The notes under the pieces are model-generated. The model was not told the origin of the DNA and did not search any database. It was given only the letters and a program-made list of their open reading frames with translations. 32,000 nucleotides of DNA from Synechocystis sp. PCC 6803 substr. PCC-P (GTDB taxonomy: Bacteria > Cyanobacteriota > Cyanobacteriia > Cyanobacteriales > Microcystaceae), in assembly GCF_000284455.1 (NCBI RefSeq), contig NC_017039.1, forward strand, positions 90,001 to 122,000. The letters run 5' to 3'. A program made the translations under genes and the position numbers. This document shows positions 11,884 through 24,188 of the stretch, one piece after another. Each line of letters begins with the position of its first letter. The stretch's first letter is position 1.

Positions 11884-12831
11884 TCAATTATTCATAATTT
11901 GGATGCCGTGGCCGATGGTGTGGGTTAGCCAAAAATCCACGTCGGGGTCGTTTAATTTTTCTTTGGCGATCGCCAGGACCTGTTCCGCTTCTGCTTGCTC
12001 CCGGCAAAGGGTAAACACGCTGGGGCCGGAGCCGGACATCATGGTGCCCAATCCCCCCGCTGACTGTAGGACCTGACGTAACTGGGCTACAGGCTGATGA
12101 GCCGGGAGCACAACTTTTTCTAAATCGTTGTGGATATGGCTGGCGATTTGCCCTGGGTTGCGGTGCTGAATGCCCTGGAGTAGGGGCCCTGCATGGATGG
12201 TTTTCCGCCGGGCTCGCTGGGACTGGTCATCGTTTAGGTAATTCTTGCCAAACTTTTGACGATAGGTTTGGTAAGCCCAGGGGGTAGAAACTTCTATGGA
12301 ACGATGTTTGGCCAATACCACCCAGAAGCAATTGCCGTCCGGTAAGGGGTCGAGGATTTCCCCCCGTCCCGTGGCGATCGCCGTGCCACCGCCAATGCAA
12401 AAGGGAATGTCGGAACCCAGTTGGGCCGCTAACTGTTCTAATTCCGGCCTGGTTAAGCCTAAATTCCAGAGCAGGTCTAAACCGACTAACACCGCCGCTG
12501 CATCGGCCGAGCCCCCCGCTAAGCCCGCCGCCATGGGAATATGCTTGGTCAAGGTGATATCTACGCCGCCGTAATTATCATGGGCTTGGGGAAAATTGTT
12601 AATCATCAACTGGGCCGCTCGGTAGGCCAAATTGGTGGCATCGTTGGCCAAGGGACTATCCCCACAACTGAGCCGGATGTCATCGGTGCCGTTGGCCCGC
12701 ACGGTAATTTTATCCCCCAGGGCAATGCTCTGCAACACCATTACCAATTCGTGGAAACCGTCGGGGCGATCGCCAAGAATTTCGAGGAAAAGATTAATTT
12801 TGGCCGGGGCATGGAGGGTGTAGGAATGCAT
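11884..12831 (-). CDS. ispE: 4-diphosphocytidyl-2-C-methyl-D-erythritol kinase
   Basis: The N-terminus [11 protein letters not shown] carries the catalytic Lys, and the GHMP-kinase loop reads [16 protein letters not shown]. Confidence 0.9.
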
Positions 12832-12921
12832 TAAGTTGGGGGTGAAAGAGGGGCAATAAATCAGTTAAATCTAACCACTCAAGTTATCGCCTAACATTTT
12901 ACGGCGATTGGCGAATCCTAA
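12768..12921. repeat. Left copy of the ksgA/ispE-junction direct repeat (154 bp)
   Basis: Positions 12768-12831 (the real ispE 5' end) match 17408-17471 at 62 of 64 nt. Positions 12832-12921 align to the ksgA 3' end (17472-17653) with about 80% identity over the first ~50 nt, a 1-nt indel, a deletion of about 92 nt, and then 37 of 39 identity (GTTATCGCCTAACATTTTACGGCGATTGGCGAATCCTAA). Confidence 0.9.
12832..12921 (-). pseudogene. Decayed 3'-terminal fragment of ksgA/rsmA
   Basis: Read on the minus strand it gives ...GFANRRKML...[10 protein letters not shown]..., compared with the intact ksgA C-terminus GFANRRKMLRNNLKG...EQWLELTNLLPTFLPPT*. It is frameshifted and internally deleted. It still ends in TAATG, overlapping the ispE start. 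Confidence 0.8.
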
Positions 12922-12929
12922 TTTGATCT

Positions 12930-15110
12930 TTATTTTTTGTCCTTAATAATTATATTCAAGATCTCTGGAAGAGTAAAATAAATATAGTAAAGAATTGGCG
13001 TGCCAACAACATCTATTGTCCCAAAATTACGACATAAATCAGAGTTGGGTATTTTAAGTTGAGGAACTTGAATCGGAGTGGAATCAATATGAAAAGTTAT
13101 ACACCATTTAACTTTAATTTTTAATTTTCTATGTTCATCTCTATCTTCTTCTTTTTCTCCCAAATCATAAAATAAATTGTCGTAAAAATAGTCTATATTT
13201 ATTTTATTAAATTCTTTACCAATAATACTTTGTGAATATGGAAAATAAGATTCCATAAGATTTGGAATATCCACTTGAATTTCTTTGAAAAAGATTTCTA
13301 CTTGTTCAAGAATATAAGTCCTGGCATTTTTTCTTTGCGCCTCATTTTGGAAAGTAATCAAAGGAATATAATTGCTTTTTAAGTCTTCATTTTCGAATAA
13401 AATAATTTCTTTTTTTTTAACTGAAGCATGAGCATTATTTTTTCGAAATTGGTAATAATTCTTCTCACGAATTGGGCTATCAAAGTCTGATGCCTCAGTA
13501 ATACCCAAATAAATATTTTGTATTGCAACAAAATTTGCCTTAAATATTTGAATACCTCTAATGTGAAATCTGTCCTCCATAATTCCCAGAAAATTACTCT
13601 CAGATTCGAGTTTGTCAACATAATAAAAAGGAATAAAAAAGTAATTTCCGATAGTGGCTTGAGGAAAAACTTGTTGCAATGCTAATTCATAACCAAGTTG
13701 TTTTTCCAAAGCTACTCTGTACCCTTTATCAGTTTCTTCTAAAGATTTATTTTCATAATCTTCATATTTTTTTAAAGAAATATTCTTAAAATCCACAATT
13801 GCAAAGTAACTTGAATCTTCATTTTTAGTAACAGTAACTAGGTCTGGCTGTGGATATCGACGCAACTGATTGGGGTAATCTGATCTAGTCACTTTATATT
13901 TCACGTCAGGAAAGATTCTCGCCTTTAAATCCCATTCAATACAGAATAATTCTCGCCAATAGAGTGGCTTGTAATTATTGGGATGGTCAACTTCAGACTG
14001 TTTTTTTTGATATAGCCACTGATTACTAGATTTATTTTTCCACCAACCAACTCTATTTTGTTCGCTTTCTGGTCTATGATGTTTAGAATTTCTAATTCTA
14101 TTATTTTTATAGCCTACTATCGGAATATCAGTATCTGCAAAGCCAATTTTATTAAAATCATTCTGAATAGGGTTAAAGTTCTTCTTAAAGAAGTAAGTTT
14201 GACACATATCTTCCCAAACATAATCAAAACCTTGTTCTCCTTGTATTCCCCAAAAATCGCCATCATCTAAGTTTGGGTTTAATCCCCCATACAAAAAAAT
14301 CTCGATAGCTTCATATAGCCCCCAATAATCAGCATCTTTATAATGCGTATTTCTATCTATATTATCAAGAGCCTCTTTGCAAATTGAAAGAGTTTCTTCA
14401 AAAGTATCTTGGTCAAAAAGAGAATGATTAATAGTTAAATAGTGATCTCTAAATCTTTGAGATAAAAATTGAATATCCTGACTTCTATCATAAATATGAT
14501 CAAGTACATCTTCCTGCAATTGTTGAATAATTTCATCGAGAATAAAACAATAAAGATCAACTATATCGGTGCTTTCATGACTTATCATTGAACGCGGTAA
14601 GTTCATAACATCGATATAAATTGCTCCATTATTTAAATAAATAGCTCTATCTAAATATTTATAAATTTTAGAATAGTCTATTTCTTCACTGCGTCGAGCT
14701 TTTTTTTCGATAGAATTGAGCGCCAAATCATCATAAGCCTCTAATATTCGTTCAATCATCGAAAGTTTACTGTATAAAATACACTCGCTTGCCTCTTTAT
14801 AGTCTAAACTAATACCACCCGTGCTTAAATTGACCTGGTCTTGGTTTTTCTTGTTTTTAGCATCTTTTCTTGTGACTCTTGAATTATTCTCATTATCACG
14901 ATCAAACTTCCTTAGTGTTCGATACATCAAAAAGAAAGAATCACGGACTTTATTGAATTTGTCGGTATCTTCAGAAGTAGCTGCATTTTGATATTTATCA
15001 ATAAAATTGTCAAAACCTTTTGGTAAATAAAAAGCATATCCATCAGGTTCAGATTTAATACCTACAAAGTCTGAGTTTGTTTTTAGATTAAGTTGCGAAA
15101 AGTTCCACAT
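12930..15110 (-). CDS. McrC/LlaJI-R2-like PD-(D/E)xK nuclease subunit, unusually long (726 aa)
   Basis: It lies 40 nt downstream of the McrB-like gene. The nuclease core elements are the helix GFDYVWE300DM, the strand QPD423LVTV and the motif AIVD440FK442N, followed by ALEKQLGYELAL. This matches the McrC pattern E...PD...(D/E)xK...Q..Y. About 120 aa of basic insert lie between E300 and D423, and about 250 aa after the core have no motif I recognise. Confidence 0.6.
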   Translation of the reverse strand: MWNFSQLNLKTNSDFVGIKSEPDGYAFYLPKGFDNFIDKYQNAATSEDTDKFNKVRDSFFLMYRTLRKFDRDNENNSRVTRKDAKNKKNQDQVNLSTGGISLDYKEASECILYSKLSMIERILEAYDDLALNSIEKKARRSEEIDYSKIYKYLDRAIYLNNGAIYIDVMNLPRSMISHESTDIVDLYCFILDEIIQQLQEDVLDHIYDRSQDIQFLSQRFRDHYLTINHSLFDQDTFEETLSICKEALDNIDRNTHYKDADYWGLYEAIEIFLYGGLNPNLDDGDFWGIQGEQGFDYVWEDMCQTYFFKKNFNPIQNDFNKIGFADTDIPIVGYKNNRIRNSKHHRPESEQNRVGWWKNKSSNQWLYQKKQSEVDHPNNYKPLYWRELFCIEWDLKARIFPDVKYKVTRSDYPNQLRRYPQPDLVTVTKNEDSSYFAIVDFKNISLKKYEDYENKSLEETDKGYRVALEKQLGYELALQQVFPQATIGNYFFIPFYYVDKLESESNFLGIMEDRFHIRGIQIFKANFVAIQNIYLGITEASDFDSPIREKNYYQFRKNNAHASVKKKEIILFENEDLKSNYIPLITFQNEAQRKNARTYILEQVEIFFKEIQVDIPNLMESYFPYSQSIIGKEFNKINIDYFYDNLFYDLGEKEEDRDEHRKLKIKVKWCITFHIDSTPIQVPQLKIPNSDLCRNFGTIDVVGTPILYYIYFTLPEILNIIIKDKK

Positions 15111-15150
15111 AATATGTAAATAAAACTATTCAATGAAAAGAAAACTTAGA

Positions 15151-16539
15151 TTATTTTGATTGATAATTTATGAGATTCATTACAAAAGCTTCATGATGTG
15201 TAATAAAGTCTCCAAAAGTTACTAATTTTTTATCATTTTTGTTAAATCCTAAAAGTTCTCGAAGTGGATTTTTGTCTCGGTTAAAAACACTATCCCAAAC
15301 AAAAAACATCAATTTATTTTTTATTTGATCTTCTGTAACTATTGCTGTATTTATGAAATGATAGCCTATTTGCATATCTTCTATTCTGCCACTTCTCACA
15401 GAATTATGATTATCTTTAATGAAGTTGTTAAATTTTTCTACTAAATCTGTCCACTTTAAATTAACATTTCCATAATCTATTAAAATAACATTATTTATTT
15501 CTTGATCATTATCTTGTTTCCAATCTACGTATTCCCACTCCCAACGTCTTTTAAAGGCATTATCCATAAAATATATAGAATTATCAGAAGTATTCATTGT
15601 TCCAAAAATGGAAAGATTGTAAGGAATACGAATTGAACTACCTACTGCTGTATTAACTTTTACTTTAATTTTAATTTCCTCAAATACAGTAAATTTTTCT
15701 AGCACGTTAGACGAACCTTTATTTTGATATTTGTATGTAGGATTACCATCATCTATTCCCGTTTGTTGAAAGCCTATTAGTTCAACCATTTTTCTAAATT
15801 CTAAATCGGAAATATTAATACCATAAGCTGACCAACCATCTCGACCTCGATCTAAAAGTTGAAAAACTGTCCCAAAAATTGCAGAAGAATTACCTCGATT
15901 AATTTCATCAATTACTAAGGCAACGTTTTGAGCTTGTACACCTTCCTTCTGAGCAATGATAATATTTTTATACGCTTGTGCTAGTGCCTTCAAAAAATGT
16001 CCTTCATAAAATTGATAATAAACACTCTTATCTTTATCATCATTCATAGTCATTGGCATTAATTTTCCCATAAAATCGCCATAGGTGTATTCGGGATGAA
16101 AAACAGTCTTAATTAAATTTTCAGGATGAATATTTTTATCAATACCTAAAACTTGTTTAACAATTCCACCATCATCATCATTAGAAATCTTATGGCTTTT
16201 GCCAGTACCAGGACAACCGAAAAATATTTTTTGAATTGGACTATTCATAACTTTGTAATGACCTTTGCTTTTATCATTGCCTTGATGCTGCAAGCGATCA
16301 AGTAAATCTAATAACTGTTCATCAGTAAGTTTATCGCGGACTATTTGCCCGTAAGTCTTGCGAATATAGTTGTACTGCTCTGATTGCCTCCATCTTAAAC
16401 GTTCAAACTCTTTATTGGTTTTAGCTATAAAATCTCTCCGCTTAAGAGATTCAAAATCTTCCATAGTTTCGTATGGTTGTTGCTTTTGTAGATCCGTTTT
16501 GAGCCACTTACTTAATATAATATTACTCACATTCCGCAC
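15151..16539 (-). CDS. McrB-family AAA+ GTPase subunit (AAA_5/McrB-like)
   Basis: Walker A is FFGCPGTGKSH (16195-16218), followed by the McrB signature FHPEYTYGDFMG and Walker B LVIDEINRGN. GTMNTSD is the NxxD GTP-specificity motif (NTAD in McrB). FKRRW is the Arg finger region, and IGYHF is also present. The start is ambiguous (GTG 16539, GTG 16530, ATG 16464). The ~100-aa N-terminal region is short, helical and lacks any reader domain I recognise. Confidence 0.8.
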   Translation of the reverse strand: MRNVSNIILSKWLKTDLQKQQPYETMEDFESLKRRDFIAKTNKEFERLRWRQSEQYNYIRKTYGQIVRDKLTDEQLLDLLDRLQHQGNDKSKGHYKVMNSPIQKIFFGCPGTGKSHKISNDDDGGIVKQVLGIDKNIHPENLIKTVFHPEYTYGDFMGKLMPMTMNDDKDKSVYYQFYEGHFLKALAQAYKNIIIAQKEGVQAQNVALVIDEINRGNSSAIFGTVFQLLDRGRDGWSAYGINISDLEFRKMVELIGFQQTGIDDGNPTYKYQNKGSSNVLEKFTVFEEIKIKVKVNTAVGSSIRIPYNLSIFGTMNTSDNSIYFMDNAFKRRWEWEYVDWKQDNDQEINNVILIDYGNVNLKWTDLVEKFNNFIKDNHNSVRSGRIEDMQIGYHFINTAIVTEDQIKNKLMFFVWDSVFNRDKNPLRELLGFNKNDKKLVTFGDFITHHEAFVMNLINYQSK

Positions 16540-16744
16540 ACGCTATATGGAGCGTAGCAGTATAAATAAATGCGCAGTAAACACAGTATAAGCAAAAACT
16601 ATTGCGCTATCAATAGCAGCAATCTGCGAAATGTCAGTATTAGTGAATAATTATTCATATTATATCTAAAAAGGTTATCCCACACAACAAAAAATGGGTA
16701 GTTATTAACCACCCTTCAAATCTATAATCAACCTACAGCGGTCA

Positions 16745-17208
16745 TGCTTTCCATCTGGTATACCAAAGTCATTGTAAAACAGTGGTTACAGGCATTTTAT
16801 ATGTGCCTAACTAATAGGGTATCCGCTGTATCCCTCTTCCGTCAAACCAAGAGAGATATTTTAGGATTAATTATTGAAAGTGCCTAATCGTAAGACTTTC
16901 AGAACTTGGCACTTGGTTTGCCCCCCTCTGGCAGTGCCTACAATTGATATGGACTGATAGCGCCTTTGTCGGAAAAGATTTTATCTAGTGGGTGGAGCAG
17001 ACCTTGGGCTGGAACTTTGGAAGTCGTCAGCAAAAAAGACGGGCAGAAGGGCTTCGAGATTTTACCGCGACGTTGGGTCGTTGAACGTACCTTTTCTTGG
17101 TTTGGTCACTATCGTCGTTTAAGTAAAGACTATGAATATTTACCTAACACTAGTGAGACAATGCTTTATTTCGCTATGATCAGTCTCATGCTCCGGAGGC
17201 TTGCCTAA
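16745..17208 (+). pseudogene. Decayed C-terminal remnant of an IS4/IS5-superfamily DDE transposase
   Basis: The intact tail reads [64 protein letters not shown], which fits the classic [16 protein letters not shown] family signature. Upstream pieces lie in other frames and include an in-frame stop ([28 protein letters not shown]). The N-terminal two-thirds is missing. The left limit is approximate. Confidence 0.7.
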
Positions 17209-17381
17209 AACTTTTCAAACACTTTCTAAAGCATTTTTAACAGAATCGTGGAAAATATCTTTGGCTGGCATAGGTTGCTAGAATTTAATTCTAATCTATT
17301 CGAAAAGCTGGATTAAAGATCCCATAAGTGTAAGAACTACAAACATAAATCTAAAACTTTCTAGCAAAACTTGATCCGCCG

Positions 17382-17471
17382 TCAGTGATACCCATAATTT
17401 GCTTGGTGATCGCCAAGAATTTCGAGGAAAAGATTAATTTTGTCTGGGGCATGGAGGGTGTAGGAATGCAT
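17382..17471 (-). pseudogene. Truncated duplicate of the ispE 5' end (29-codon [24 protein letters not shown]...)
   Basis: Its ATG (17471-17469) overlaps the ksgA stop as TAATG. The first 21 codons match real ispE except for A-to-D in APAKINL. The frame then runs into island sequence and stops at TGA 17384-17382. Confidence 0.8.
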
Positions 17472-17653
17472 TAGGTTGGGGGTAAAAAAGTCGGCAACAA
17501 ATTAGTTAACTCTAACCATTGTTCTAGGCTTAAGTCTTCCGCCCGGGCAGTGCTCGGCAAAGCTAACTGCTCCAATAAAGTAGTCAACTGTTCCGGGGCA
17601 ATTAATCCCTTGAGGTTATTGCGTAACATTTTACGGCGATTGGCGAATCCTAA
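17408..17653. repeat. Right copy of the ksgA/ispE-junction direct repeat (246 bp)
   Basis: See the left copy. This copy comprises the ispE' fragment (17408-17471) plus the intact last ~182 nt of ksgA. Confidence 0.9.
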
Positions 17654-20391: not shown

Positions 20392-20724
20392 ATGGCGGGA
20401 ATATTATCCCCATGTTCAGAATCTACCCTGACGGATCGCTATCAGACCACAGTGCCTGACCCGGTTCGCAAAGCCTTGGGGTTGAATAAGCGAGATAAAA
20501 TTTGCTACACCATTGAAGCCGATGGCAGAGTGTGGATTGCCAGGGCTGAACAGGCAGAAAATGATCCGGTGCTGGGGAAATTTTTGGATTTTTTGGCACA
20601 GGATATGGATAAAAATCCTCAGCATATACAAGCGGTCAGTTCTGAGTTGGTTGATCGTCTGCAATCGCTAGTCTCCGATGTTGATGTAGATCTAGATGCG
20701 CCATTGCTGGACGAGGATGAATAG
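20392..20724 (+). CDS. prlF: PrlF/SohA-family antitoxin (AbrB/SpoVT-like fold)
   Basis: The N-terminus ESTLTDRYQTTVPDPVRKALGLNKRDKICYTIEADGRVWIAR matches the PrlF swapped-hairpin pattern. It has an acidic C-terminal tail (DVDVDLDAPLLDEDE) and is followed 2 nt later by a YhaV-like gene. Confidence 0.8.
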   Translation: MAGILSPCSESTLTDRYQTTVPDPVRKALGLNKRDKICYTIEADGRVWIARAEQAENDPVLGKFLDFLAQDMDKNPQHIQAVSSELVDRLQSLVSDVDVDLDAPLLDEDE

Positions 20725-20726
20725 AT

Positions 20727-21224
20727 TTGCCAATAGATAAGCCTTTATTGATTAATGGGTGGAAGATATTTGCCCATCCCCTATTTCTTGAGCAGGTTGA
20801 AGAACTTGTGGCCCAGGTTGAATATCTGCGTCAAAAGAATCCCAAAGATTATAAAAAGAAAAATGCTACCAAGCGTCTAGCGGCGATCGCCAAATTAGCA
20901 TTTGAGGTTATTCCCCAAGATCCCACCCGCCATGAATATCGACAGGGAAATACCCTTGGAAATGATTATAAACACTGGTTTAGGGCTAAATTTTTTCAGC
21001 AGTATCGTTTATTTTTTCGCTACCACCAAGAAAGTAAAATTATTCTCCTCGCTTGGGTTAATGACGAAGACTCAAAACGTGCCTATGAAAGTAACACAGA
21101 TGCCTATAAAGTCTTTAGAAAAATGCTCGAAAATGGCCATCCTCCTGATGACTGGAATGATTTACTTACCGAGGCTAAACGTGTTGGCGATCGTTTACAA
21201 AAAATTGCCGAAGTTGAGCCTTAA
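20727..21224 (+). CDS. yhaV: YhaV-family toxin (RelE-superfamily ribonuclease)
   Basis: INGWKIFAHPLFLEQVEELVAQVEYLRQKNPKDYKKKNATKRLAAI...YRLFFRYHQESKIILLAWVNDEDSKRAYESNTDAYKVFRKMLENGHPPDDW closely follows my recollection of E. coli YhaV. The start is TTG. Confidence 0.8.
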   Translation: MPIDKPLLINGWKIFAHPLFLEQVEELVAQVEYLRQKNPKDYKKKNATKRLAAIAKLAFEVIPQDPTRHEYRQGNTLGNDYKHWFRAKFFQQYRLFFRYHQESKIILLAWVNDEDSKRAYESNTDAYKVFRKMLENGHPPDDWNDLLTEAKRVGDRLQKIAEVEP

Positions 21225-21243
21225 TTTTCCCGTCTTTCACACT

Positions 21244-21268
21244 GGCGATCGCCATTTGGAATCAACAA
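21244..21268. repeat. 25-bp direct repeat, copy 2 (downstream of yhaV)
   Basis: See copy 1. It translates as GDRHLE, compared with RDRRLE* at the end of the upstream gene, so it is a pseudo-duplicate of that gene's 3' end. Confidence 0.75.
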
Positions 21269-22750
21269 AAATGTTTTAACAATGTTAATTTTTCTCTCAA
21301 TCTCTCAAGATTGGGGTATTTAGAATCTGATTCCTTCGATATTGAGAACCCAGGTAGACTTCTCAAATATACTCTTTAGTATGTACTTGTGATAATATTG
21401 GGATAGCCTTATTATTATGCATTTCAGTGTACTCATGAAGTTAGAGCAAAATATTTGAGGCAATTCAAACATTTCGTAAAAGTCTAAAATAATGTGATAA
21501 CTATATAATGGATGATAGCTTTAGTATGAAAAACCACACAATCTCCCAGAACCCACAAACTACTTTTATCTACTTGCACATATAATGATGACTGACTATC
21601 CTACCAATTTATTTGAATTATCAACAGGCTTTCTAGACCACAGAATAATAAAAGAATTTTATGTTTATACAGTTTGTATTGAGAGAGGTAGATGGAGCGA
21701 CATTGAGTATGATGTGATACATGATCTACATATAGTAGAATTCAATTCTTTTACAGCTTTGATAAAGATAACAAATCGTGACAAAGTTGAACCAATAATC
21801 ATAGTGCCAAGACAGTACTGGAACCTCATAAGACCTTTCAATAACTTAAAAGAAAAGTGTGAAAGATTTTACACTTTTGATGATCTGAAAGAATCTATTT
21901 ACACAAAATGCTTTGTTAGCGTAGATAGTATAGATAAGATATTTCGTAGTATTCTTACCGCGCAAAAAATAACTGAAGAACAACATAATCAGTTAGAAAA
22001 ATACATAAACACGATTGAGGATTTTTGCAGAATGTTCATGCCAAAATTTGAGTCTATCAATGATTCATTAATGAGTGATGAAGAGTATTCAGAGAAAGTT
22101 TATAAAGAATTTTCATCACCCAGGTATGACTCTAATGAGCAGAATGAGCAGAGGTACAAATACAACTATAAATACGGAAAGGTAGGTGAAATGTATATAA
22201 TGAATAGCATGGCAAGTTTATTTCACCAAATGCATTCAATCGAAGAAAGCATAAAATTTTTGTATGAAAAGAAAAAAAGTGATGAATATATCAAGGAGCT
22301 CTGTGAAAACAAACTAATGGTGACCATAGAAAGTGAATTAAATGTATGCCGAGAACGCCTTAGAGAGTTAAAAAAGAAAAATATTTATATTTCACCAAAA
22401 GTATTCGATGGTCTATATGAAAAATACTTAATGTCAGACTATCAAGAAGAAGACGCTCGATTATATGCTGATTATAGAGAATCTAATCAAGGGCAAGAAT
22501 ATTTTGCCCCTAATGATGACTGCTACCTCCCACTTGTTGATGATGGTCAATACTCTTAGTTTGAATCATAATTAACACCAAATGATAGCTTGATTAAACT
22601 TTAAACCGAGAGTGCCAAAAAAGCTAACTAAGAACTGTCTGAAATCCTTTATTTTTTCATTGACATAACTTGGATTTAGACAAAATTTAAATCTCTATTT
22701 CAGAAAAACATAAACCACTTTAAAAATAGATAATTTAACTTGATGATCAG
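21269..22750. mobile_element. Second AT-rich insertion (about 1.5 kb) with a single orphan ORF
   Basis: Composition switches to strongly AT-rich right after repeat copy 2 and returns to native near 22770. It contains no HIP1 site. The boundaries are approximate. Confidence 0.55.
21585..22559 (+). CDS. Orphan hypothetical protein (324 aa), beta-rich N-terminal part and Glu/Lys/Tyr-rich helical C-terminal part
   Basis: It is the only long ORF in the AT-rich segment, which is notable because AT-rich DNA is stop-rich. I recognise no motif. It is preceded by a 25-codon ORF (21508-21585) whose TAA overlaps the ATG as TAATG. Confidence 0.5.
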   Translation: MMTDYPTNLFELSTGFLDHRIIKEFYVYTVCIERGRWSDIEYDVIHDLHIVEFNSFTALIKITNRDKVEPIIIVPRQYWNLIRPFNNLKEKCERFYTFDDLKESIYTKCFVSVDSIDKIFRSILTAQKITEEQHNQLEKYINTIEDFCRMFMPKFESINDSLMSDEEYSEKVYKEFSSPRYDSNEQNEQRYKYNYKYGKVGEMYIMNSMASLFHQMHSIEESIKFLYEKKKSDEYIKELCENKLMVTIESELNVCRERLRELKKKNIYISPKVFDGLYEKYLMSDYQEEDARLYADYRESNQGQEYFAPNDDCYLPLVDDGQYS

Positions 22751-22853
22751 ACAAACGTTGTTTAATCATTGGTTTTCCTCTCCCCAATCGGAAGGAGAGT
22801 CAATGCGGAAGGCGATCGCCTGGGGATAATATGGGGAGTGGTAATTTTGGGAG

Positions 22854-24188
22854 TTGCAGTTGAAAATCCCTTCCCATCTCTTGAAGAAAGAACAACTAGC
22901 GGTCTATTGGGGCTTGACCCTACTGCCCTTCAACGCCGTAGCGGGGTTACTGCCACTGCTGTTTGCGAGCCTGAGCCCCTGGTTTTTCCATGGCAAAAAA
23001 TTAGCGAGCCTACCCCTGGCCAAAGTGTGGGCCGCCCTGACCCTATGGTTTTTACTGACCACCATCACCGCCCATGACCGGGGAGAAGCCCTGTTGGGAT
23101 TGGCCAACTTTGTGCCCTATTTCATAGTTTTTCTTGCCTTTAGCCAAGTAATTTGCCAATTTAAGCAACTCAATACCCTAGCTTGGCTGTTAACTGCTAA
23201 TACCGTGGTGTTAGTCATCATCGGTTTTGGACAAGTCTATGGCGGCTGGGCCACCCCCAATTGGTTAGTGGCGATCGGTACTAACTTGGTGGCCGGGGGC
23301 AGACCAGAAGGGAGAATGTCTTCCCTATTAATGTATGCCAACCTATTTTCCGCTTGGTTATTGATGGTATTTCCCCTCAGTCTGGGGCTATTGATCCAAT
23401 CCGTCCGTCGTTGGCATTTCACCGCCCCCAGTAACCGCTTCAATCTTCCTCCCCTGGTATGGGCCCTGTTAGTAGCTTGCATCCTAGAGGCGATCGCCTT
23501 AGTGTTGACCGGTTCCCGCAGTGCTTGGGGCATTGGGTTACTAATTGGCATTGCCTACGCCATTTATTTAAGTTGGTACTGGTTAGTGGCCCTGGCTGGG
23601 GGAGCCACTGCCATGGTGTTATGGGCATCCTTTGGCCCCTTTGGCAAAGAACCATTGCGACAGATAGTGCCTAAATATTTTTGGGGCAGATTATCCGATG
23701 AACTTTACCCCGACCGTTACCGCACTGCTCTTCGTAGCACCCAATGGCAATTTAGCTGGGATATGTTCCTGGACCAACCCATTTTTGGCCAGGGCTTGCG
23801 GAATTTTACCCCCCTGTACCAAGCCGCCATGAACGTTTGGATTGGCCATCCCCATAACTTGGTGCTGATGATGTTGGGGGAAACGGGCTTGATCGGCACT
23901 GCGTTAATGCTGGGAGCGGTGGGCTTCATTCTGGCCCAGGGCATGGTGCTACTGATTCACCTCAGTCGTGGTGGCGGTTTTCGCCGTCGGTCCCAACATT
24001 TATTACTGCTGTCCTATGGCATTGCCTTTGCCGCCCTTTGTTTATACAACCTATTCGATGTCACCATTTTTGATATGCGGAATAATGTCTTGGGCTGGAT
24101 TTTCCTAGCGGCGATCGCCGGGGTGAGCCAACGGTATGGAACCAAATTAGCCCAGGGTGATCCGGCAAAATTACAGGTGCCTGGGTAA
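22854..24188 (+). CDS. O-antigen ligase/polymerase (Wzy_C)-like polytopic membrane protein
   Basis: It has many TM segments. The family loop motif reads GQGLRNFTPLY...IGHPHNLVLMMLGETGLIG. The start is uncertain (TTG 22854 in the track, with no nearby in-frame ATG). Confidence 0.75.
   Translation: MQLKIPSHLLKKEQLAVYWGLTLLPFNAVAGLLPLLFASLSPWFFHGKKLASLPLAKVWAALTLWFLLTTITAHDRGEALLGLANFVPYFIVFLAFSQVICQFKQLNTLAWLLTANTVVLVIIGFGQVYGGWATPNWLVAIGTNLVAGGRPEGRMSSLLMYANLFSAWLLMVFPLSLGLLIQSVRRWHFTAPSNRFNLPPLVWALLVACILEAIALVLTGSRSAWGIGLLIGIAYAIYLSWYWLVALAGGATAMVLWASFGPFGKEPLRQIVPKYFWGRLSDELYPDRYRTALRSTQWQFSWDMFLDQPIFGQGLRNFTPLYQAAMNVWIGHPHNLVLMMLGETGLIGTALMLGAVGFILAQGMVLLIHLSRGGGFRRRSQHLLLLSYGIAFAALCLYNLFDVTIFDMRNNVLGWIFLAAIAGVSQRYGTKLAQGDPAKLQVPG

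Follow-up and report, generated by a model that had tools for sequence, protein, structure and literature searches.

How does a motor-driven nuclease choose its target when it carries no recognisable DNA reader and no methyltransferase is encoded at its side? This question is raised by a locus on the chromosome of Synechocystis sp. PCC 6803, analysed here within a stretch of 32,000 nt (the window, to which all coordinates refer). Two minus-strand open reading frames (ORFs) lie in an AT-rich island of the window: sll0709 (15151..16539, 462 aa) and sll0710 (12930..15110, 726 aa). A first-pass annotation of this DNA had described them as an atypical McrBC-like pair of GTPase and nuclease, and had proposed a modification-dependent defence module. 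Here, homolog searches and alignments show that sll0710 is a fusion of a McrC-like nuclease (component B) with a conserved third component (C), which is a separate gene in most relatives; sll0709 represents the McrB-like motor (component A). The best explanation of the whole, which we hold with middling confidence, is that sll0709 and sll0710 form the Synechocystis variant of a McrBC-like restriction cassette that has three components, is self-contained, occurs in cyanobacteria only and follows a type IV-like logic.

The motor and the nuclease

Both ORFs were found again at the coordinates given in the first-pass annotation, and all motifs reported there are present. The 462-aa product matches a Synechocystis protein, sll0709, whose identical NCBI entry is named 'McrB family protein', and the 726-aa product is sll0710 at 100% identity in the homolog search. 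In sll0709, the motifs GCPGTGKS (residues 108-115), FHPEYTYGDFMG (147-158), LVIDEINRGN (208-217), GTMNTSD (313-319), FKRRW (329-333) and IGYHF (391-395) make up the McrB-type set of P-loop, Walker B, MNT[A/S]D (NxxD) consensus loop and paired arginines. An aromatic-type residue (Y/H/F) after the P-loop and the NxxD loop recur across the A family alignment, and NxxD is also the signature that predominates in the survey of Bell et al. (PMC11090510). The assignment to the McrB-family AAA+ NTPases is in good agreement with sequence matches in the PDB to McrB of T. gammatolerans (8.5e-11) and E. coli (5.4e-7), both spanning Walker A, Walker B and the MNTSD loop. PADLOC REase_II models match with E-values of 2.5e-34 and 3.5e-26, the NCBIfam McrB model with 4.9e-8, which is far below its equivalog cut-off, and Pfam gives a sub-threshold match to AAA_5 only.

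The AAA+ NTPase domain (residues 96-462; 15154..16254, minus strand) carries an insertion of ~65 aa (residues 233-300) between Walker B and the consensus loop, and is highly conserved in an alignment of 17 homologs (A6). Only about half of these homologs share the first ~95 residues; the others begin a few residues before Walker A. The roughly 100 N-terminal residues that had been noted ahead of Walker A are thus present in sll0709, but they are an optional helical module (residues 1-95; 16255..16539, minus strand; pI 9.4) rather than a constant part of the motor. Residues 30-86 match the C-terminus of NCBIfam slr1353_fam (E 4.9e-9), as does P0163 (1.3e-4). This slr1353-type module of ~55 C-terminal residues (window 16255-16450; sll0709 residues ~30-95) is common to two Synechocystis protein families. 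Apart from the slr1353 family no match was obtained for residues 1-95, and no Pfam domain was found there, which agrees with the earlier statement that a modified-base reader cannot be recognised. Neither the fused N-terminal modified-DNA-binding domain of canonical McrB nor an N-terminal sequence-specificity domain of the LlaJI R1 type is found in sll0709.

Since the N-terminal module is optional and missing from many homologs, most A motors would be 'bare', like LlaI.R2 and BsuMI.R2. These two motors are not GTP-specific, for want of an N-linker (bioRxiv 10.64898/2026.08.31.748284, Chappie lab 2026). As the N-linker confers GTP specificity according to the same preprint and most A proteins have none, the label GTPase for sll0709 is best read as an assumption.

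Component B comprises residues 1-537 of sll0710. The alignment of the family, which also served as input for AlphaFold2, holds 92 sequences. The resulting model of sll0710 is confident over the core residues 1-540 (overall predicted local distance difference test score, pLDDT, 69.5; predicted template modelling score 0.67). Its top Foldseek match in the PDB is B. subtilis YdjA (BsuMI.R3; 9a5m_A of the YdjA-YdiS model) with E 6e-11, probability 1.0 and 609 columns, followed by McrC of E. coli (3.8e-3) and of T. gammatolerans (3.4e-2). XisH, FokI and BamHI match the nuclease half in part. From the fold matches and the invariant residues, B follows the McrC plan of an N-terminal finger and a PD-(D/E)xK nuclease. 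The McrC-like N-terminal (finger/activator) domain covers residues 1-290 (14241..15110, minus strand) according to the model and Foldseek, and is the most conserved part of the B family in a search of representative proteins. The PD-(D/E)xK nuclease domain, delimited by invariant columns and Foldseek, covers residues 291-537 (13500..14240, minus strand) and includes E300, D326, D328, D423, D440, K442 and K470. All of these, as well as P422, Y474 and E475, are invariant in the 92 sequences. The claim of a McrB-like NTPase with a McrC-type partner, made on E300, D423, D440 and K442, is thus borne out, and the PD-(D/E)xK assignment holds.

Within the nuclease domain, a basic insert had been proposed. 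A segment between E300 and D423 indeed exists throughout the B family; in sll0710, residues 330-415 (13866..14123, minus strand; pLDDT ~75-89) have a net charge of +8 and a pI of 9.8. The high positive charge, however, is particular to sll0710, as the family median is +2 and the range -8 to +9.

Sequence families contribute little to the placement of B. No match to McrC or DUF2357 was found for sll0710 in Pfam, and none to RE_LlaJI (PF09563) at E<=1; the latter family is matched weakly by 4 of 18 B homologs (best 4.9e-8). NCBI gives many B homologs the name 'LlaJI family restriction endonuclease'. Because nothing usable came from scans of Pfam, NCBIfam, PADLOC and PHROGs, or from searching PDB sequences with either sll0710 or the B-family profile, B is placed by structure prediction only. 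The homolog search yielded 165 B-family clusters, and a profile search of 1.84 billion representative proteins found only 325 B relatives, those with names being cyanobacterial even where distant.

The third component and its fusion to the nuclease

At 726 aa, sll0710 had been regarded as a McrC of twice the usual length with a C-terminal extension of about 250 aa (residues 480-726). The homolog search suggests a different interpretation. About a dozen full-length relatives have 724-760 aa, while more than 100 of ~520 aa cover only 74% of the query. In the alignment, residues 1-537 are common to all, and residues 538-726 occur in the long clade only. The addition therefore amounts to ~190 aa (538-726), and residues 480-537 belong to the conserved nuclease core. 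It consists of a linker (residues 538-569; 13404..13499, minus strand), present only in the fused clade and of low pLDDT, and of the component C module (residues 570-726; 12933..13403, minus strand), which is recognised by BLASTP to stand-alone genes.

Such stand-alone genes, of 156-183 aa, follow the nuclease gene in four short-clade loci, from Nostoc, Prochlorothrix, Fischerella and the filamentous cyanobacterium ESFC-1, where they overlap the stop codon of B or start within 10 nt of it. Residues ~570-726 of sll0710 match the downstream genes in loci L008 and L004 with 2e-55 (54% identity) and 5e-35, respectively. Across other cyanobacteria the stand-alone C has 156-193 aa, and in most loci the stop of B and the start of C overlap by 4 nt. 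A profile of C collects 176 clusters, a family size about that of B; all are annotated as 'hypothetical', and all with an organism name are cyanobacterial. Of 267 B-family proteins tested, 13 have B and C fused, and these all belong to the close clade of sll0710. A combined alignment of fused, B-only and C-only proteins was discarded, as MAFFT spread the C sequences over the N-terminus.

These comparisons show that C is a conserved third component that is fused to B in Synechocystis and encoded separately in most relatives. What had been taken for an extended McrC is then a nuclease joined to another protein, and what had been taken for a two-gene pair is a three-component system of motor, nuclease and C. 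That C pairs physically with the nuclease, 1:1, is supported by their strict co-occurrence, by the overlapping stop and start codons and by the existence of B-C fusions.

No match to C was found in Pfam, NCBIfam, PHROG or PADLOC. An AlphaFold2 model of C, predicted apart from B from an alignment of 68 sequences, shows a fairly confident alpha/beta protein (pLDDT 76.7) with residues ~45-190 well predicted; Foldseek returned chance-level matches only (best E 0.44 in the PDB and 0.14 in BFVD). The family is mildly acidic (median pI 5.9) and its alignment contains many invariant aromatic residues, which could make a base-binding pocket. In Geminocystis-type loci (L021:11728-12591, L049:11732-12637), C is enlarged to ~290-300 aa and carries an N-terminal IF2_N domain (PF04760, E ~1e-12). 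IF2_N domains are thought to contact nucleic acid.

Distribution of the cassette and its insertion in Synechocystis

The cassette was surveyed in one genome per species, which gave 46 loci. In 38 of them the genes stand in the order A-B-C on one strand; the other eight are cut by contig ends or degraded. Truncated ORFs of A and/or B were seen in about six loci (L033, L040, L047, L053, L054, L055), so that the cassette appears to decay repeatedly. All loci except one contig are cyanobacterial, and every named host is a cyanobacterium. The exception (L010; CAIKLL010000199.1, 4204 nt) was binned into an 'uncultured Rickettsiales' metagenome-assembled genome. Its cassette has 82-90% amino acid identity to sll0709/sll0710, and it is most likely a mis-binned AT-rich cyanobacterial fragment.

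In each lineage, the cassette is placed between unrelated housekeeping genes; further copies are carried by plasmids or lie in a conjugative context. Its GC content is below that of the flanks in all 21 loci measured, by 4.5 to 18 points (median ~10). The ratio of nonsynonymous to synonymous substitution rates (dN/dS) against the orthologs of Anabaena sp. 4-3 is 0.17 for A and 0.19 for both B and C, values that speak for purifying selection. By these sequence measures the cassette looks both functional and mobile.

Clustering of the neighbouring ORFs revealed no recurrent neighbour family in the 46 loci save a Nostoc synteny block with a UbiE-type small-molecule methyltransferase, the atp operon and apcE. 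No DNA methylase was found within 8-10 kb of the cassette in seven Pfam-annotated loci. A methylase motif scan of all 46 loci, made with a crude regular expression, gave five matches that were checked by Pfam, and three of these contain DNA-methylase domains. A Dam-class methylase directly upstream of A in locus L026 is the sole adjacent DNA methylase, and an HsdM gene lies 4 kb from the cassette in one other locus. In Prochlorothrix hollandica, a complete HEC-01 candidate defence pair directly follows the cassette (L005:10327-11948; HEC-01A 1.4e-141, HEC-01B 7e-54 with PADLOC), which by gene content would place this copy in a defence-island context. A DUF2887 (PF11103) gene directly follows the cassette in two fused-clade loci, from Okeanomitos and Anabaena sphaerica (L002:12248-13030, L003:12275-13045); it is present neither in the window nor in L001.

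In Synechocystis, the cassette resides in ~4.5 kb of AT-rich inserted DNA between ispE and ksgA (12922..17404, no strand assigned), which was delimited by its composition and is bounded by direct repeats. The GC content is ~30% over 13000-16500, as opposed to ~52% in the flanks. As had been claimed, sll0709 and sll0710 are the sole intact cargo: the remainder consists of short chance ORFs and an 80-aa C-terminal fragment of an insertion sequence DDE-transposase (16966..17208, plus strand; PF13586 3e-10, PF01609 2e-8). The absence of a methyltransferase in cis was likewise confirmed, as a check of the large ORFs in window 1-24200 revealed none. M.Ssp6803II (sll0729) was considered as possibly lying in the window, and the scanned ORFs contained no methylase domain. 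Motif counts in the island (CGATCG 0, GGCC 0, HIP1 0, GATC 15) are as expected from 30% GC and thus uninformative, and an Rfam search of the window found no family.

The boundaries of the insert allow a view on its origin. The 4.5-kb insert is flanked on either side by a copy of the ancestral ksgA-3'/ispE-5' junction, of which ~250 bp are duplicated. The left copy (12765..12921) consists of the real ispE start and a decayed ksgA remnant, and the right copy (17405..17653) of an ispE 5' remnant and the real ksgA 3' end; both were defined, again without strand, by the repeat families D1 and D2. Identity is 93% between 12765-12850 and 17405-17490, and 83% between 12868-12921 and 17600-17653, the left copy having a 92-nt deletion. 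A duplication of this size is far too long for the target duplication of a transposase, and transposition is hence disfavoured. The arrangement fits a single homologous crossover with a circular DNA, and suggests that the insert was acquired by such a Campbell-type integration.

Because the insert split the old ksgA/ispE junction, the essential gene ispE (sll0711) is now separated from ksgA, its former upstream neighbour, and starts on the same strand as sll0710, 98 nt beyond the stop codon of that gene (region 11884-12977). The transcription of ispE may depend on the island. A promoter-like site (TTTACT-17-TATAAT, 12977-12949, minus strand) lies within the 3' end of sll0710. A scan for promoters and terminators gave background level only, and matches to a CRP-type site pattern in the window were not above chance. 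A SyCrp1 site has been attributed to sll0710 (PMC3159480). A segregated disruption of sll0710 was not obtained, and the gene was unusable as a neutral integration site (PMC8272380). We do not take this as evidence of essentiality, since a polar effect on the downstream essential ispE is at least as likely; the position of ispE may explain the failed disruption.

A second AT-rich patch (window 20500-23000, 31-36% GC) contains a gene for a YhaV-family toxin (20727-21224; PF11663, E 4.5e-65) and a 324-aa ORF (21585-22559) that has no match in Pfam or PADLOC. It is possibly another small horizontally acquired module.

Proposed function and competing explanations

Among characterised systems, BsuMI (B. 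subtilis YdiR/YdiS/YdjA) and LlaI, two non-canonical McrBC-like restriction systems of three genes, share with the cassette a motor that, in most A proteins, has no fused DNA-binding domain, as well as the presence of a third protein component (bioRxiv 10.64898/2026.08.31.748284). They also have the McrC-like nuclease in common with it, YdjA (BsuMI.R3) being the best structural match to residues 1-540 of sll0710. The third components differ, however. In BsuMI and LlaI it is R1, a DNA-binding protein whose gene lies upstream of that for the motor (LlaI R1 has 329 aa and an ERCC4-like domain 1). C, by contrast, is a mildly acidic protein of ~170 aa without a fold match, and its coding sequence lies downstream of that for the nuclease or is fused to it. 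An R1-type two-domain ERCC4-like gene was not found upstream of A in the loci examined, with the LlaI.R1 structure perhaps absent from the PDB copy searched. Moreover, BsuMI and LlaI are accompanied by methyltransferases and the cassette is not.

LlaJI (L. lactis pNP40; M1, M2, R1, R2) likewise combines a McrB-like NTPase with a PD-(D/E)xK partner. It differs from the cassette by its 5-methylcytosine methylases and by the PF09563 match that sll0710 does not give, and the cassette has the extra component C. A large N-terminal domain sets the specificity of LlaJI (PMC1459862), and A has no such domain. Canonical McrBC (E. coli, T. gammatolerans) resembles A in the P-loop with its aromatic residue, Walker B, MNTSD and the RR sensor/finger, and resembles the cassette in the two-domain McrC plan and in having no methylase. 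The cassette in turn has no SRA-, YTH- or EVE-type reader, most A proteins have no N-linker, and the third component and the restriction to cyanobacteria set it apart. In CoCoNuTs and other McrBC variants, an accessory protein is fused to the McrC homolog or separate, depending on the subtype (Bell et al., eLife 2024, PMC11090510), which is the situation observed for C. CoCoNuTs, however, have an NxD motif, coiled coils and RNA-binding domains, while the cassette has NxxD and a C unrelated to their accessory proteins. No long coiled-coil region is seen in the AlphaFold2 models of B and C, a dedicated coiled-coil prediction not having been run. Implementing profile scans and neighbourhoods, which show no LlaJI hallmarks, we regard the cassette as probably not a standard characterised McrBC or LlaJI subtype, since linked 5-methylcytosine methylases and the R1 N-terminal specificity domain are absent. 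This is in accordance with the first-pass annotation.

From McrBC, LlaJI and BsuMI we infer how the components would work together. A would assemble into an AAA+ hexamer driven by nucleoside triphosphates (NTP), the N-terminal domain of B (residues 1-290) would enter the ring and boost hydrolysis, and two B nuclease domains (D423/D440/K442) would cleave both DNA strands. By this analogy we expect with high confidence that the A hexamer, the B finger and the B nuclease constitute an NTP-driven endonuclease. Because most A proteins have no DNA-binding domain, target choice must reside in B or C, and would more likely come from the small subunit C (residues 570-726 in Synechocystis).

As the cassette travels without any methyltransferase, a methylase-independent logic of self and non-self is favoured over classical restriction-modification: the enzyme would cleave DNA that carries a non-host modification or feature, in a type IV-like manner. 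In the first-pass annotation type IV logic was considered implied. The absence of a linked methylase stands, but the LlaJI-family names and the BsuMI.R3 fold make it only one of two live readings. Several points weigh against the type IV-like explanation. The nearest characterised relatives, LlaJI and BsuMI, cut unmodified sites and depend on methylases. The AlphaFold2 model of full-length sll0710 has a pLDDT <50 over most of residues 558-726 and offers no confident interface between B and C. Given its mild acidity and the missing fold match, a role of C as specificity subunit is a conjecture. Finally, type IV systems are not usually confined to a single phylum, and the confinement seen here hints that the cassette relies on some factor of its cyanobacterial hosts.

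In the second reading, the cassette cuts unmodified sites like LlaJI and BsuMI, and the host DNA is protected in trans by near-universal cyanobacterial orphan methyltransferases, either the Dam-like one (GATC, 6-methyladenine) or that of HIP1 (CGATCG, 5-methylcytosine). The cassette could then move among cyanobacteria without a methylase of its own and could not establish itself outside the phylum, which would account for its strictly cyanobacterial spread among named matches and loci and for the few relatives among the representative proteins. The better match of A to REase_II than to McrB models, the LlaJI-family names and occasional PF09563 matches of B homologs, the BsuMI.R3 fold and the Dam-class methylase in L026 all point in this direction. 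So do reports that the Dam-like M.Ssp6803III (GATC) and M.Ssp6803IV could not be deleted and that pre-methylation of CGATCG improves the integration of foreign DNA in Synechocystis (PMC6105098). According to the same study, however, M.Ssp6803I (CGATCG) is dispensable, with wild-type growth in its absence, and unmethylated CGATCG is thus not lethally cut. Dam is reported there to be essential in Anabaena PCC 7120 too, and a restriction partner is therefore not required to explain why the enzyme is indispensable (PMC6105098). Moreover, 45 of the 46 loci have no linked methylase, and nothing like the site-specific DNA-binding domains of LlaJI.R1 and LlaI.R1 is present. Weighing both sides, we consider protection in trans plausible but less likely than the type IV-like logic.

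Alternatively, C may be an autoinhibitory or immunity module that holds B off until a phage-derived trigger arrives, with an outcome like abortive infection. A mildly acidic rather than basic protein would suit this role, as would a gene that immediately follows the nuclease gene, mostly with overlapping stop and start codons, and can fuse to it; the PDB and BFVD searches detected no DNA-reader fold either. C has, however, no homology to a known antitoxin or inhibitor, the IF2_N domain of the Geminocystis-type C would better suit a targeting role, and the invariant aromatic residues could equally form the base-binding pocket mentioned above. We regard this explanation as unlikely.

That the horizontally acquired cassette has by now been silenced, or is a decaying remnant, and has no present function in Synechocystis PCC 6803 is less probable still: cyAbrB2 broadly binds and represses AT-rich Synechocystis DNA (PMC11368403), rapid amplification of cDNA ends (RACE) gave no transcription start for sll0710 (PMC3159480), truncated copies exist in other species, and the strain is considered 'virtually free' of restriction endonucleases, with five methylation motifs (Hagemann et al., PMC6105098), but both ORFs are intact with all catalytic residues, the dN/dS values are low, the sll0710 protein is identical across many Synechocystis contigs on record, and sll0710, listed as 'unknown protein' of transcriptional unit TU97, is transiently induced in dark microoxic conditions (PMC11368403), so that the locus is not transcriptionally silent.

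Returning to the type IV-like restriction cassette, what is new is a cyanobacteria-specific, methylase-less three-component system related to McrBC, LlaJI and BsuMI with a novel third subunit; the enzymology is that expected for the class. None of the papers available to the analysis treats sll0709 or sll0710 as parts of a restriction system. Among motor-driven defence nucleases, the McrBC type forms a major class, and target choice by motors without a reader domain is currently addressed only for LlaI and BsuMI. The cassette would be a third, unrelated solution, in which a small conserved subunit is fused to the nuclease in one clade. It would also add a defence system that current detectors miss, as PADLOC has no model for B or C. 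Tentatively, and with clear reservations, we suggest that C may represent a new type of subunit, one that provides specificity to McrBC-type motor nucleases or acts as their sensor. It would tie the complex either to the phylum-wide HIP1/GATC methylation state, in which case DNA devoid of this methylation would be cut although the cassette has no methylase linked to it, or to a cyanophage-specific DNA modification.

Synechocystis is among the most genetically tractable cyanobacteria. If active, the cassette could account for the so far unexplained barrier to DNA uptake that depends on methylation in this host, and would be relevant to strain engineering. Should the sensor role of C prove true, sll0709/sll0710 would be the missing restriction activity of the 'restriction-free' Synechocystis PCC 6803, and the effect of pre-methylation on transformation efficiency would be explained.

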